From contig CALXEX010000002.1 of NCBI GenBank assembly GCA_944387445.1, positions 28,290 through 92,289 on the forward strand: DNA of 64,000 nucleotides. The letters are read 5' to 3'. How positions within the stretch are numbered: the stretch's first letter is position 1; each line of letters starts with the position of its first letter. The stretch comes from an uncultured Clostridia bacterium. Its GTDB lineage: Bacteria; Bacillota; Clostridia; TANB77; CAG-508. The notes below the pieces were generated by a model that did not search any database, had not been told where the DNA came from, and saw nothing but the letters and a program-made list of their open reading frames with translations. Shown here piece after piece: positions 51,093 to 59,022 of this stretch. Both the position numbers and the translations under genes were made by a program.

Positions 51093-51425
51093 TCATACCA
51101 CTTGATTTTTTATCAATAACTTTACCATATTATAAATTAATTTTTGTTTTTCCAGATTACACTTGATAATTAATTCATATAAATCTTTATCCATATATCT
51201 TATTATATGATCCGTTTTTTCGTTTAGAACGTCATAAATGGAAATATTTAAGAAATCGCATATCTTGATAAATGTTTTTAATTCTATTTTCGTTTTTCCA
51301 TTTTCTAGTTTACTGATATAATTCATAGATAATCCTAAAAAATCTGCCATTTCTTTTTGCGTAATTTTATTTTCCATTCTTGTTGCTTGTATTCGTTTAC
51401 CAATATTAGCAAAATCCATATCCAT
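51093..51425 (-). CDS. XRE-family HTH transcriptional regulator
   Basis: ITQKEMADFLGLSMNYISKLENGK HTH motif. Confidence 0.8.
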   Translation of the reverse strand: MDMDFANIGKRIQATRMENKITQKEMADFLGLSMNYISKLENGKTKIELKTFIKICDFLNISIYDVLNEKTDHIIRYMDKDLYELIIKCNLEKQKLIYNMVKLLIKNQVV

Positions 51426-52883: not shown

Positions 52884-53933
52884 TTATCTTCCTTCATCTC
52901 TTACCAAAGATTCTTGATTTTTTTTACGCTCTAATAAATCTCTTGCAAAATTTCTTCTATACGCATACATTTGTGTTCCAAAATTGATATATGCGCTAGG
53001 CAATCCTTCACAATCTTCTAAATATCTTTTTATATGTTCATCTGTGTTTTTACTTAATTGTTTTCTTAATATTTCTTCAGTCTCATGTGGATATGTCCTC
53101 ATTAAATATGTAAGCATATCTTTATATGTTGAGTGCTCCTTAGTTTCCCCTGGTACATGCATTATAGAAAAGAAAGTTTCTTCTGCTATATTTTCCATGT
53201 TTTCACTTCTTAGTGCTTTTTCTATAAAGTCTTGATTTTCATAAAGCCCTAACACTTTTTCATTATCATATAATGGATATAAATCGATATCTTGATTTGC
53301 TTTTATATGCATAGACCAATTTTCATCATGTCTATCATAGTTTCCATATAAACAATCATAAACTACCATTTCTATGATTCTTTTTCTAGTTTGTTCTACT
53401 TTGGATTGTATAAATTCTTCTGAATAATTTCCAGTAGTTCTATAAAAATCTTCTACTCTAAATGCAACAGCAGATAATACCAATTCTATATTATTATTTA
53501 TATCTGGTTTTTTTCTCTCATCTTTTATAATTTCTCTATATCTATCTTGGTTATTTTCTTCGAACCTTTCTATTGTAACTTTCCCTGCTTCTAATATATC
53601 ATTTTGATTCAATTGACTATAAATGATACCCCCATCTTTTTTTATTGGTGTTCCATGGTGTCTTTCTTTATGTATATTTGGATAATATTTACTAAGATGA
53701 GCTAACTCGGCTTTACAAGTGGGTATTCCTGCATTGTCAGCTAAAGCACTACCAATAACCTCTCCATAATGATTGCCACAAAAAACATCTTTATTTCCAG
53801 GTTCTTGCCTTTGTGGTTTAAACAAGCCTCTTTGAAATGTTTTAGTATCAATATACCATCTTTTTCCTTTTAGCATTCCTACTTTTTCAAAATAATGTGG
53901 TATAAAGCTGTCAATATTTCTAAATTTGAACAT
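52884..53933 (-). CDS. HipA-like Ser/Thr kinase lacking the N-subdomain (HipT-like), copy 2
   Basis: LFKPQRQE...GEVIGSALADNAGIP, catalytic loop GNYDRHDENWS and Mg-binding LYPLYDNE. Its start lies 1 nt after the stop of the upstream gene. Confidence 0.7.
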   Translation of the reverse strand: MFKFRNIDSFIPHYFEKVGMLKGKRWYIDTKTFQRGLFKPQRQEPGNKDVFCGNHYGEVIGSALADNAGIPTCKAELAHLSKYYPNIHKERHHGTPIKKDGGIIYSQLNQNDILEAGKVTIERFEENNQDRYREIIKDERKKPDINNNIELVLSAVAFRVEDFYRTTGNYSEEFIQSKVEQTRKRIIEMVVYDCLYGNYDRHDENWSMHIKANQDIDLYPLYDNEKVLGLYENQDFIEKALRSENMENIAEETFFSIMHVPGETKEHSTYKDMLTYLMRTYPHETEEILRKQLSKNTDEHIKRYLEDCEGLPSAYINFGTQMYAYRRNFARDLLERKKNQESLVRDEGR

Positions 53934-53934
53934 T

Positions 53935-54306
53935 TTATTTCTCCTCTTCTAATATATATTTATCTGTTACTAACATACCTTTTGTCTTTCTCAAATACTC
54001 AAACTCATCATACTCATCCATTTCTAACTCTTCTAATAATTCTTTTAACTCCTCTTTCGTATATTTTTCAATTTTGGGTAATCTTACTTTAAATATAGCA
54101 AATATTTCCGTACTTTCATAAATCTTATCTAAGTCGTAAAAGGGCAATAAAGCTTTTGAAATTGCTTTTTCTTGAATTGCTTTTTCTACATGTTTCCTAC
54201 TCATTTTAAAATAGTATTTTCCCTTTTCCTTATCTCTAAATAATGCACCTATTAAATATTTTTTATTTGTTCGATAATCTATCCATTTTAAATATAAATA
54301 CTCCAT
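53935..54306 (-). CDS. HipS-like mini-protein (resembles HipA N-subdomain 1)
   Basis: YLIGALFRDKEKGKYYFKM ... LPFYDLDKIYESTEIFAIFKVRLP ... YDEFEYLRKTKGMLVTDKY follows the Couple_hipA-type pattern. Confidence 0.5.
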   Translation of the reverse strand: MEYLYLKWIDYRTNKKYLIGALFRDKEKGKYYFKMSRKHVEKAIQEKAISKALLPFYDLDKIYESTEIFAIFKVRLPKIEKYTKEELKELLEELEMDEYDEFEYLRKTKGMLVTDKYILEEEK

Positions 54307-54321
54307 TTGTCCACCTCATTA

Positions 54322-55413
54322 TTATATTTCCATTCCCTCATGCTCTTTTCTGTCTTTAAATGCTTTTACGATATCTGCTATTTCTTGTTGTCTTTCTAAA
54401 AATATTTTTTTAGAAAATTGCTTATGTTCTTCAGATAATCCAGGGCATACTTCCAAAACTTCTTCTAAATGTGGAAAACTATATCTACCAATATCTTCTA
54501 ATGCATCCATTGTTTCATCCGCATAATTTTCTAATAAATACCTTAAAAACGTGGCTGGTGTTGTATTGCTGATTTGTCCTGGTATTCCCATATAAGATGT
54601 CAAACTTTTTTCCTTAAATTTTTCATATTCTTTTTCACTTGACAAATATTTTGTAACGTCATTTTTTTCTTCTTGCATACCTAAGATTTGCTCATTATCA
54701 AAAAGTGGATAAAAATCTATTTCATTTGTAAGTTGGTTAACTTTTACACCAAAATTTTCATCATTTCTATCTCTATTAGCAAACATCAAATCAAAGACAC
54801 ACATATCAAAAAAATGTTTTCTCATCTGAGGAATTTTATCACCTTGTCCATGTTGGGTATAATATTCTTCTAAAGTTTTTAATATGATTTCAATATTCAC
54901 ATAATTTAGTTGTGAGTTTGTTTTACCTCTTTCTGTCATTTCCTTATATTTTTTAGGATGTTCTTTTTTATAACTCTCAACAAGTTCAGCTAATGTTTTA
55001 AAATTTTCTTGTGGTTGAAGTTGATAATAACTTAAAACACCTTCTACACTTATTGTTTTACTACTATATTTATTTTTTATATCTATTTCCCCTAAATCGA
55101 CTTTACATACGTCTTTTCCTAATTGCTTTAAAATCAAATAAGCTATATATTCTGCATAATGGTTCGCATATTCTTTATTGTTTTTTAATTTAGAATTATA
55201 TCCACTTTTAGATTTAAACTCTCCTAATTTTAAGACTCCTGTTGGATCCTTATAGGTCATTGTCGCATGTACTTTTTCATTGCGTTGACTAACAGTCCTT
55301 CTTCCATAACTTGTAAAAAAATATCCATTTTTCGGATTTAATTTTTTCTGGACGCCTATTTGTTCATGTATTTCGTTTCTTACTTCTTTTAAACTTTTTA
55401 CTGGTAACAACAT
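54322..55413 (-). CDS. HipA-like Ser/Thr kinase lacking the N-subdomain (HipT-like), copy 1
   Basis: Catalytic loop FANRDRNDENFG (Asn in place of the usual His) and FYPLFDNE. 363 aa. Confidence 0.7.
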   Translation of the reverse strand: MLLPVKSLKEVRNEIHEQIGVQKKLNPKNGYFFTSYGRRTVSQRNEKVHATMTYKDPTGVLKLGEFKSKSGYNSKLKNNKEYANHYAEYIAYLILKQLGKDVCKVDLGEIDIKNKYSSKTISVEGVLSYYQLQPQENFKTLAELVESYKKEHPKKYKEMTERGKTNSQLNYVNIEIILKTLEEYYTQHGQGDKIPQMRKHFFDMCVFDLMFANRDRNDENFGVKVNQLTNEIDFYPLFDNEQILGMQEEKNDVTKYLSSEKEYEKFKEKSLTSYMGIPGQISNTTPATFLRYLLENYADETMDALEDIGRYSFPHLEEVLEVCPGLSEEHKQFSKKIFLERQQEIADIVKAFKDRKEHEGMEI

Positions 55414-55516
55414 ATTTACTCCTTTTCATATACTATATCTATTTTACCATAATTTATGGAAAAATCAAGTAATTGAGCTTTATTGTTTTATGTAAATTCA
55501 AATAATAAATATAGCA

Positions 55517-55551
55517 AATAAAAAACTACTAAAATAAATTAGTAGTTTTTT
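55517..55551 (-). terminator. Intrinsic terminator after the ABC permease gene
   Basis: AAAAACTACTAA-TTTATT-TTAGTAGTTTTT hairpin with a T-run on the minus strand. Confidence 0.6.
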
Positions 55552-55553
55552 GC

Positions 55554-57217: not shown

Positions 57218-57331
57218 CATGTATTTTGCCATTAATATATTTTATGTAAAATGAAAGAAGATGGTGTATCTATCACACTATTACAACTAACCCCTGAATA
57301 TATTCAGGGGTTAGTTGTAATGCATATTATT

Positions 57332-57964
57332 CTAATTTTCTAAATATATTAACTCTTCTAATATAGTATTTTTCATCTTAGGTTGTTTTAAAAATTGAAA
57401 TAAGTTTATTAAATTATATTTTAATTCCAATATATGATTATCATAAGTTGTCATCTGAAAACATTGCTTCATTGTTTTTCCATAATGATATGTATTTTCT
57501 TTAACATATATCACAATAGGAATGATACTTATATTTTTAATATTTTTTTGCTTACAATTTTGAATAACTTTTATACATTCCTGTAAAATTGAATATGGTA
57601 AATCTGCAGAAATTTTTTGCTGATACATAATCACATAAAATATTTGTTTATCTAAGTGTTTATATATGATTTTTATACCTTTTTTTCCTCTATAAAATTC
57701 TATGTATTTCAATTTTTCTTTTTCTATTTTCGCGTGGCAATCTGAAAAACACTTAAGAAAGAAACAAATTCTTTCTCTATCTTTAAATAGATATTCAATG
57801 ATATCCTTATATCGTGTTTCTAAATGGTTTCCTAGTAAAAGCCCATATGTTTCACTTTCTTCTTGAACATCTAAATAATCTTTTTGTTTGATATTATGAA
57901 TACACTGAATATAGTTCTTATATGTAAATTGATATATAACGTCTTTCACCTCCTTGTAAATCAA
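57332..57964 (-). CDS. Rpn/YhgA-like PD-(D/E)XK nuclease-family protein (divergent)
   Basis: IKIIYKHLDKQIFYVIMYQQKISADLPYSILQECIKV...IIPIVIYVKENTY mirrors the Rpn-family layout. Confidence 0.4.
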   Translation of the reverse strand: MIYKEVKDVIYQFTYKNYIQCIHNIKQKDYLDVQEESETYGLLLGNHLETRYKDIIEYLFKDRERICFFLKCFSDCHAKIEKEKLKYIEFYRGKKGIKIIYKHLDKQIFYVIMYQQKISADLPYSILQECIKVIQNCKQKNIKNISIIPIVIYVKENTYHYGKTMKQCFQMTTYDNHILELKYNLINLFQFLKQPKMKNTILEELIYLEN

Positions 57965-58182
57965 ATTTTGAAGTTACTTTTGGGATTTTTTTGATATTAA
58001 AATTTATGATAAAATTTAGACTAAAATATATAAATTAAATTATGTATATTAAATCACAAAAATGTAAAAAATACAAGTATTTTCTGTTTTTTCGTATGAT
58101 AAATATAATTTTCCAAACATTCGTTTGACTTTTTCTTTCAAATGTTATATAATATTTAAAAATAAACGAGGAAGTGATATTT

Positions 58183-59022
58183 ATGCAAGAAAACAAATTA
58201 GCTTTATTCGAAGAAAAAGAGATTAGGATGAAATGGTATAATGATGATTGGTTCTATTCTGTTGTTGATGTAATATTTGTATTAACGAATAGTAAAGATC
58301 CAAAAGATTATTGGTACAAACTAAAAACAAGAGTTAATGAAGAATCTAAAATTGAACTATCGACAATTTGTCGACGTTTGAAATTACCTGCAAAAGATGG
58401 AAAAATGAGAGAAACAGATTGCACTGATACAAAAGGAATATTAAGAATTATTCAATCTATCCCCTCTCCCAAAGCTGAACCTTTTAAATTATGGCTAGCA
58501 CAAGTCGGAAGTGAAAGATTAGATGAATTAGTAAATCCTGAACTTGCAATTAATAGAGCAAAAGAAACATACATTCGAAAAGGATATGATGATGGTTGGA
58601 TTGCACAAAGATTAAAATCAATAGATAGCAGAAAACAACTAACAGATACATGGAAGAATAGTGGTGCCAAAAATAGAGACTACGCATTATTAACAGATGA
58701 AATTTATAAAAATACTTTTGGTTTAAATACTGCCCAATATAAAACTTTAAAGGGAATAGATAAAACAAAGCGAAACTTAAGAGATAGCATGGGGAATCTA
58801 GAGTTAGCCATAACAAATTTGGCAGAAGTAACAGCAAATGAAATACATCATAAAAATAATAGTTATGGATTAGAAAAATTAAAAGATGATGTTGTAAGAG
58901 CTGGTAAAATAACAGGAAAAACAAGGAAAGATATCGAACAAGAAATTGGAAAAAAGGTTGTAGACAAGACAAATTATAAAAATCTTACAAACACACAAAC
59001 TAAAAATCTACCAAAAAAATAA
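58183..59022 (+). CDS. Bro-N domain protein (DinD / prophage antirepressor-like)
   Basis: WFYSVVDVIFVLTNSKDPKDYWYKLK...IQSIPSPKAEPFKLWLAQVG. The ATG at 58183 sits behind GAGGAAGTG. Confidence 0.65.
   Translation: MQENKLALFEEKEIRMKWYNDDWFYSVVDVIFVLTNSKDPKDYWYKLKTRVNEESKIELSTICRRLKLPAKDGKMRETDCTDTKGILRIIQSIPSPKAEPFKLWLAQVGSERLDELVNPELAINRAKETYIRKGYDDGWIAQRLKSIDSRKQLTDTWKNSGAKNRDYALLTDEIYKNTFGLNTAQYKTLKGIDKTKRNLRDSMGNLELAITNLAEVTANEIHHKNNSYGLEKLKDDVVRAGKITGKTRKDIEQEIGKKVVDKTNYKNLTNTQTKNLPKK

Follow-up and report, generated by a model that had tools for sequence, protein, structure and literature searches.

Persistence and toxin-antitoxin biology are both studied with Hip kinases as a model, and the system described here belongs to uncultured gut Clostridia. 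This system is a cluster of three genes, coding for a kinase (K1), a HipS-like protein (S) and a second kinase (K2), located in a window of 64,000 nucleotides (the whole stretch of DNA that was analysed) from an uncultured Clostridia bacterium (assembly GCA_944387445.1, contig CALXEX010000002.1, positions 28,290 to 92,289 of the forward strand). Ten organisations of Hip genes were catalogued by Gerdes, Baerentsen and Brodersen in 2021 (PMC8262856), including hipJS, with two examples, and hipIN, with 14 examples; the kinase-HipS-kinase layout is absent from the ten. The PADLOC candidate PDC-M03 is the two-gene hipIN/hipL type, so it is not this trio either, while HIRAN-HipA clusters have been mentioned only as predicted defence genes (PMC11706625). 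An incomplete literature search returned no published description of K1-S-K2, which is not proof of absence.

As in the trio, hipJS codes for a short core kinase, HipJ, that lacks N-subdomain 1, and a small standalone HipS-like gene comes next, without a helix-turn-helix (HTH) partner; the K1-S order is the same, and at two loci (L033 and L036) K1-S stands alone. However, hipJS is bicistronic, whereas the trio adds an old paralogous kinase, K2, which begins 0-5 nt past S in 31 of 32 loci; furthermore, the trio S groups by profile with HipN and HipL, while the HipS of hipJS was placed with the HipS of hipBST (PMC8262856). The hipIN system, corresponding to PDC-M03, consists of the HipI kinase and of HipN, in which a HipS-like domain is joined to a HIRAN domain. 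It shares with the trio the kinase-then-HipS-like order and the related profiles, since K1 and K2 match PDC-M03A and S matches half of PDC-M03B, and in both cases function has only been predicted; the trio differs in having three genes instead of two, in the lack of HIRAN in S, with a second kinase gene where the HIRAN half of HipN would run, and in its position outside defence islands and mobile elements. HipL has the domain order of K1-S, and the S profile detects HipL proteins (P0203 and P0247); however, HipL is one fused kinase-HipS-like-HIRAN chain, with no second kinase.

The HipBST systems of E. coli O127, Legionella and Haemophilus, in which HipS acts as the antitoxin, follow a split-HipA logic, with the HipS-like gene directly upstream of the core kinase, as in S-K2. 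The trio, in contrast, has no HipB and contains two kinases, K1 being upstream of S. Finally, the closest solved structure is that of CtkA (JHP0940) from H. pylori (PDB 3AKJ/3AKK), also a HipA-like core kinase, which has a DRH..N loop and lacks N-subdomain 1; but CtkA is borne by an integrative and conjugative element and was studied as a secreted pro-inflammatory kinase, with neither a HipS-like partner nor a paired kinase described.

The three proteins of the trio

All three genes lie on the minus strand and are read in the order K1 (54322..55413, 363 amino acids), S (53935..54306, 123 amino acids) and K2 (52884..53933, 349 amino acids). The stop codon of K1 is followed after 15 nt by the start of S, and the TAA stop of S after 1 nt by the ATG of K2. 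These open reading frames are found exactly where the original prediction had placed three tightly coupled genes, with gaps of 15 and 1 nt, and the catalytic loops that it had reported as DRNDEN in the first kinase and DRHDEN in the second are both read in the translations, as ANRDRNDENFG (K1) and GNYDRHDENWS (K2). Its further remark, that the layout was not recognisable from described Hip systems, agrees with the position of the trio outside the catalogued organisations and PDC-M03.

Sequence and model comparisons identify S as a HipS-like protein of the HipN/HipL branch, predicted to have the fold of HipA N-subdomain 1 and devoid of HIRAN; the lines of evidence agree, although none on S alone is strong. 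Against the Pfam family Couple_hipA (PF13657), S scores 17.4 bits, below the cut-off of 22.5 (E 0.0065). A clearer match is obtained with the N-terminal half of PADLOC PDC-M03B (2.4e-19), which S follows at positions 8-114 of 232 and then ends. When the S-family profile was searched against 1.84 billion representative proteins, only 160 related clusters were retrieved; these fall into standalone proteins of about 105-145 amino acids, proteins of about 220-255 amino acids containing Couple_hipA and HIRAN, and a few of about 500-530 amino acids containing HipA_C, Couple_hipA and HIRAN. Profile relatives clear the Couple_hipA cut-off, with 26-32 bits, and the larger ones have the HipN (HipS-like plus HIRAN) and HipL (kinase plus HipS-like plus HIRAN) architectures defined by Gerdes et al. 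(PMC8262856); they also match PDC-M03B at full length and M03A together with M03B. No HIRAN domain was found in S, whereas the true HipN relatives carry the Pfam HIRAN domain.

For the AlphaFold2 model of S (predicted local distance difference test, pLDDT, 93.7), the only kind of full-length fold match is the N-terminal domain of Shewanella HipA, with a template modelling (TM) score of 0.58 and a probability of 0.75-0.84, but a non-significant Foldseek E-value. The sequence of S alone gave nothing meaningful against the chains of the Protein Data Bank (PDB), and the match between the S family profile and H. influenzae HipS (HI_0666) is weak (E 0.17). The mechanism by which HipS inhibits its kinase has been described (PMC10627512); E. 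coli HipS has an inhibitory bulky residue, Trp65, which inserts at the Gly-rich loop of the kinase. Within the S family, W8 and several aromatic residues are invariant. Thus, the half-length PDC-M03B match, the relatives passing the Couple_hipA threshold and the HipA N-domain fold all argue for the HipS-like assignment that had been made for the 123-amino-acid protein from its sequence pattern.

Two fusions of the HipS-like domain were also observed, one with an RNase_T/DEDD exonuclease (P0148, 306 amino acids) and one with a YopX domain (P0175, 246 amino acids). The former echoes the report of DEDD dinuclease genes beside HIRAN-HipA clusters (PMC11706625).

Fold, profile and motif comparisons place K1 and K2 among the HipA-superfamily core kinases that lack N-subdomain 1, and indicate that they are not of the HipT type. 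In the Pfam HipA_C family (PF07804; cut-off 30.5 bits), K2 is recovered with 38.0 bits, while K1 remains below threshold with 18 bits; both match PADLOC PDC-M03A strongly (7e-30 for K1 and 6e-26 for K2). In the profile searches originally proposed for the trio, HipA_C thus passes its cut-off for K2 and stays below it for K1, and the Couple_hipA match of S is weak and below the cut-off. K1 and K2 share 28% identity along roughly 290 residues (E 2e-33), and for both the closest sequence in the PDB is H. pylori CtkA. The AlphaFold2 model of K1 (pLDDT 93.5, predicted TM score 0.92) also has CtkA as its best Foldseek match, with E 3e-12 and TM scores of 0.64 and 0.77 when normalised by query and by target, respectively; the values are about 0.5 for HipT, reaching 0.64 by target for Legionella HipT, and 0.4-0.5 for HipA, and the Foldseek probability is 1.0 for CtkA, HipT and HipA alike. 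In both kinases an N-terminal G-x-x-K motif is present but, unlike in HipT's Gly-rich loop, it has no conserved adjoining Ser or Thr.

The original prediction of two paralogous kinases, both devoid of the N-subdomain and flanking one HipS-like protein, is thus supported, whereas its HipT label is not: CtkA is nearer than HipT, the profiles that match are of the hipIN/hipL type, the Ser/Thr of the Gly-rich loop is not conserved, and the K1-S order is that of hipJS and not of hipST. Across loci, K1 sequences cluster with K1 and K2 sequences with K2, and both are nearer to one another than to the kinase domains of HipL, which makes the duplication an old one, earlier than the radiation of this clade. 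Against outgroup kinases, K1 scores below K2.

Judged by its sequence conservation, K2 is a strictly canonical enzyme and K1 a derived, yet still constrained, copy. In K2, residues D200, H202, N205 and D223 are invariant in 40 of 40 orthologues, with all catalytic and ATP/Mg positions unchanged, and the FE..G.LKGKRW motif is essentially invariant. All 46 orthologues of K1 keep K67, E88, D215, N220 and D239, but the position of His217 is occupied by His in 25 of them, Asn in 13, Ser in six and Ala in two; Asn is found in the window and in all deep clades, and the tree needs at least five changes at this site. Moreover, the N-terminal motif of K1 that resembles a Gly-rich loop becomes unrecognisable in the deep clades. 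The equivalent His of HipT touches the Ser that becomes autophosphorylated in the Gly-rich loop (PMC10627512); the freedom of this residue to vary in K1 therefore suggests that the regulation of K1 is different. K1 is thus a constrained and probably ATP-binding kinase-like protein, the regulation of which would be altered. The reading of DRNDEN as the mark of a pseudokinase, which had been put forward as a possibility for the first kinase, was rejected, as His alone varies, the five other catalytic residues are invariant and purifying selection is as strong as on K2, with a ratio of nonsynonymous to synonymous substitutions (dN/dS) of 0.24 for K1 and 0.28 for K2.

Two variants of the module were also encountered. 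A degenerate kinase paralogue, X346, lies directly upstream of K1 at L001 (3786-4826), L027 (3786-4826) and L051 (2224-3216); its copies, of 346 and 330 amino acids, occur in two separate lineages and are 36% identical to each other. Compared with the K1 profile by hhalign, X346 aligns over 254 columns with a probability of 96%, but other residues stand in place of the catalytic loop and of the FDNE Mg-binding motif; X346 is thus a true pseudokinase, giving a four-gene version of the module. In another, divergent lineage (L054:4872-6134 and L060:991-2256), the K2 slot holds a kinase of 420 amino acids, 27% identical to the other K2 proteins, with an insertion of about 20 residues in the C-terminal region and a canonical DRHSRN loop; K1 of this lineage has DRNDEN, and S, called as 131 amino acids from an upstream start, is 56-60% identical to S of L001.

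Conservation and genomic setting

Homologues of S were found in 36 species-representative genomes, all of them metagenome-assembled genomes of uncultured gut Clostridia, and in metagenome contigs. The K1-S-K2 order is present in 31 of the 36 genomes, and the trio of L032 is interrupted by a contig end. Further trios (L045-L050 and L052-L064), some of them very divergent, come from metagenome contigs. The unit recurs in uncultured Clostridia of gut and rumen, in about 45 lineages, from chicken, rabbit, ruminant, mouse and human hosts. This survey of gene order, one of the checks named in the original prediction, indicates that the arrangement goes beyond chance, because the same three-gene order recurs both in the 31 species genomes and in the metagenome loci. 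The contigs of L016 and L029 stop just past S, while L033 and L036 are true K1-S bicistrons, having a terminator and no remnant of K2; K2 without S was found at none of the roughly 45 loci. Searches of phage and plasmid collections (tblastn of S) and of viral contigs (pattern scan) gave no match, and a scan around distant standalone S-like proteins returned only further members of the same clade. At L041 (6056-6373), between uvrB and purC/uvrA, a 105-amino-acid remnant of S persists with neither kinase traceable, which indicates that the trio can decay in place.

The median dN/dS over 15 close pairs (S, 0.07; K1, 0.24; K2, 0.28) shows purifying selection on all three genes. Mean pairwise identity is 73% for S, 49% for K2 and 46% for K1, and in 99.8% of 595 locus pairs it is S that has the highest identity. 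For the same genome pairs the mean identity of uvrB is 89%, compared with 70% for S, 47% for K2 and 42% for K1; the kinases therefore diverge very fast. The need to match two fast-diverging partners would explain the conservation of S.

In all deep-branching lineages, and at about 24 loci altogether, the gene order is uvrB, K1-S-K2 and uvrA, all on the same strand, sometimes with purC on the opposite strand ahead of uvrA. Judged from these gene orders, the ancestral site of the trio is inside the uvrB-uvrA pair. The uvrB stop is only 3-5 nt from the K1 start in three lineages (L040, L042 and L045), and among 19 uvrB-K1 intervals a terminator-like hairpin is absent in about 11 and present in about six. 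Boxes of the LexA type (GAAC-N4-GTTT) occur just upstream of uvrA or uvrB at L005 (6701), L031 (7696), L034 (2640) and L023 (7770), and most uvrB-linked loci are without them; a search for Cheo-type boxes (GAAC-N4-GTTC/T) upstream of uvrB, K1 and uvrA found them only sporadically, and none near the window trio.

The sub-clade of the window carries the intact trio away from uvrBA, and neither uvrB nor uvrA is in the window; thus, at least two unrelated chromosomal sites hold the trio, which was moved as a whole. In the window clade the neighbours are a YhgA/Rpn-like gene, genes for an ABC ATPase, a permease and a substrate-binding protein, an XRE gene and an NlpC/P60 gene. No defence genes were found among the neighbours of the trio, and the loci surveyed do not show the enrichment that marks defence islands. 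Likewise, no HTH gene is adjacent to the trio, and none is conserved with it across contexts. The nearest one in the window (51093-51425, HTH_3) is 1459 nt downstream, past the substrate-binding-protein gene, and it is missing from the other genomic contexts of the trio; the absence of HipB, with an XRE gene about 1.5 kb away, had been predicted and therefore holds. This XRE gene was considered as a cryptic HipB and rejected, being confined to the window clade, mostly one gene away from the trio and always paired with the downstream NlpC/P60 gene.

Loci L012 (4380-7866) and L015 (4026-10263) have the YhgA-like gene, the trio, XRE and NlpC/P60, but lack the genes for the ABC ATPase, the permease and the binding protein, pointing to separate gains or losses on either side of the trio, whichever state is ancestral. 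Insertion into an ABC operon was accordingly discarded as the defining context of the trio, given the lack of ABC genes at these two loci and the uvrB-uvrA location in most lineages. The YhgA/Rpn-like protein of the window (57332-57964, minus strand, 210 amino acids, Pfam Transposase_31) is encoded upstream of the ABC genes; its gene is near the trio in every window-clade locus, directly adjoining K1 in L012 and L015, and may have something to do with the move of the trio away from uvrBA. Further upstream, a gene with a Bro-N domain (58174-59022, plus strand) coincides with a local dip in G+C content to 0.23-0.27; of the related loci only L014 has it as well, which gives it the look of a recent and small insertion of phage-type DNA.

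Several predicted signals would allow the trio to be expressed on its own. Upstream of K1 there is a promoter-like sequence on the minus strand (55441..55468), TTGATT-16-TAAAAT with the TG of an extended -10 element, predicted by a consensus scan and by reading of the sequence. Farther upstream, directly 3' of the stop codon of the ABC permease gene, an AT-rich hairpin on the minus strand (55518..55552), AAAAAACTACTAA / TTAGTAGTTTTTT, is followed by a T-run and resembles a terminator; it was read from the sequence, as the consensus scan overlooked it because the stem has few G-C pairs, and it looks like an element that would insulate the trio from the upstream gene. The sole terminator-like result of the consensus scan is a perfect hairpin with a 20-bp stem and 7 G-C pairs (57279-57322), between the ABC ATPase and YhgA-like genes; it lies on the plus strand, opposite to the genes on either side, which are on the minus strand.

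Each gene of the trio has a ribosome-binding site on the minus strand: AAAGGAG for K1 (55419..55425), GAGGTGG for S (54311..54317), in the K1-S spacer, and GAGGAG for K2 (53941..53946), in the last codons of S, which code for its EEEK tail. The 1-nt spacing between S and K2 and the position of the K2 ribosome-binding site inside S suggest that the two genes are translationally coupled; 1 nt is also the commonest S-K2 spacing across loci. Wherever K2 is gone, the EEK tail of S is gone too, and the invariance of this C-terminal EEK is better explained by the embedded ribosome-binding site of K2.

Models of trio function

The reading that we favour, with confidence about evenly balanced, is that of a chromosomal three-gene Hip-type module, a variant of hipJS/hipIN ("clade XI", PDC-M03-like), where a single HipS-like protein would be in control of two kinases. 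If HipBST and HipA are taken as the analogy, S would supply in trans, to both K1 and K2, the N-subdomain 1 that they lack, docking on each kinase at the position that this subdomain has in HipA and keeping the kinase inactive. Displacement or depletion of S would then allow one or both kinases to phosphorylate an essential factor of translation (an aminoacyl-tRNA synthetase, for example) and bring growth to a halt, the outcome being a stress arrest of the toxin-antitoxin type or abortive infection. A role in toxin-antitoxin biology or phage defence is a reasonable inference from the relatives, and the defence function has a precedent in HipA-family kinases, as HipAD, a different system of the family, has been validated (PMC13092281). 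The binding of S, the toxicity of the kinases and their target are likewise inferred by analogy.

Several observations weigh against this model. The contact of S with K1 and/or K2 is argued by analogy, the Foldseek E-value between S and HipA (about 0.4) is non-significant, and HipS chains are outside the top 50 Foldseek matches of the S model. The trio is found outside defence islands, phages, plasmids and viral contigs, its distribution is not patchy, and one chromosomal site, uvrB-uvrA, has been kept over deep divergence; toxin-antitoxin and defence genes do not usually behave in this way. Antitoxins of type II systems typically evolve faster than their toxins, whereas here the putative antitoxin, S, evolves more slowly than the kinases; no DNA-binding component is present for autoregulation. 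Moreover, after the loss of K2 it is not S alone that evolves faster, but also K1, in the one lineage where this can be seen.

An unlikely alternative is that two units are simply juxtaposed, namely a hipJS-like K1-S pair and a K2 that is independent of S, or that uses S merely for translational coupling. The independence of K1-S, with its own terminator, at L033 and L036, the kinase-then-HipS order shared by hipJS and hipIN and the identity of only 28% between K1 and K2 would all be expected in this case; but K2 always occurs with S at the roughly 45 loci, the S-K2 spacing is held at 0-5 nt in nearly all of them (31 of 32), and the three genes were relocated together to a new chromosomal site. 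S followed by a kinase is also the order of HipS-HipT and of the HipA domains, and K2 is itself without N-subdomain 1, so that an independent K2 would be the only kinase left without a lid.

The residence of the trio between uvrB and uvrA raises another explanation, also of low probability: a domesticated kinase module linked to DNA repair, rather than to toxin-antitoxin or defence functions, and co-expressed with the uvrB/uvrA excision-repair genes. When DNA is damaged, the kinases would act on repair proteins, by modifying them, or would restrain translation or growth, with S as a required regulatory subunit and S plus K2 as a split HipA. Consistent with this are the same-strand order uvrB-K1-S-K2-(purC)-uvrA at about 24 loci, including all deep clades, the intervals of 3-5 nt between uvrB and K1 at L040, L042 and L045 and the lack of a hairpin there in about 11 of 19 loci, although about six of these 19 do have a terminator-like hairpin after uvrB, and synteny among related genomes is non-independent evidence. 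The long-term retention of the site, purifying selection on all three genes, the HIRAN domain, a DNA-end-binding domain, in the nearest relatives of S, and the conservation of S above that of the kinases, unusual for an antitoxin, point the same way. However, the whole window clade has left uvrBA and possesses its own promoter-like site and upstream terminator-like hairpin, LexA-type boxes are sporadic, and the divergence of the kinases greatly outpaces that of uvrB (identities of 42-47% and 89%, respectively), which suits genes involved in conflict better than housekeeping regulators.

A third possibility is a switch based on partner exchange, in which a constrained S is shared by K1, as a derived sensor, and by K2, as the canonical effector, and a trigger frees one of the two kinases; this we consider quite unlikely. 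The trigger, for instance phage infection or, in view of the ancestral uvrBA setting, DNA damage, would shift S from one kinase to the other, a detail that is equally doubtful. If true, this switch would be a Hip logic without a DNA-binding component or a classical labile antitoxin, unlike every described Hip system. Very unlikely is the related proposal that K1 is a catalytically impaired sensor or decoy competing with K2 for S, in a partner switch with K2 as the sole effector: the variable His position of K1 (H/N/S/A), its Gly-rich-loop-like motif, unrecognisable in deep clades while K2 is invariant at both, its lower scores against outgroup kinases and the addition upstream, in two lineages, of a true pseudokinase paralogue, X346, are outweighed by the retention of the Lys, the Glu, the catalytic Asp, the Asn and the Mg-binding Asp in 46 of 46 K1 sequences, by a dN/dS on par with that of K2 and by the presence of K1 as the lone kinase at loci without K2.

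Meaning for the Hip family

If the favoured reading, one HipS-like protein controlling two kinases, is true, the trio would represent an organisation beyond the ten catalogued ones, and the first with two kinases for each HipS-like protein. As one S faces two diverged partners, it would then offer a natural system in which to ask if a HipS-like protein is an antitoxin or an obligate subunit of its kinase. The usual pattern would also be reversed, with a putative antitoxin far more conserved than the putative toxins. Finally, the residence in the uvrB-uvrA pair, together with the HIRAN domain of the closest relatives of S, would point to a link, open to testing, of this branch of the Hip kinases with DNA damage.

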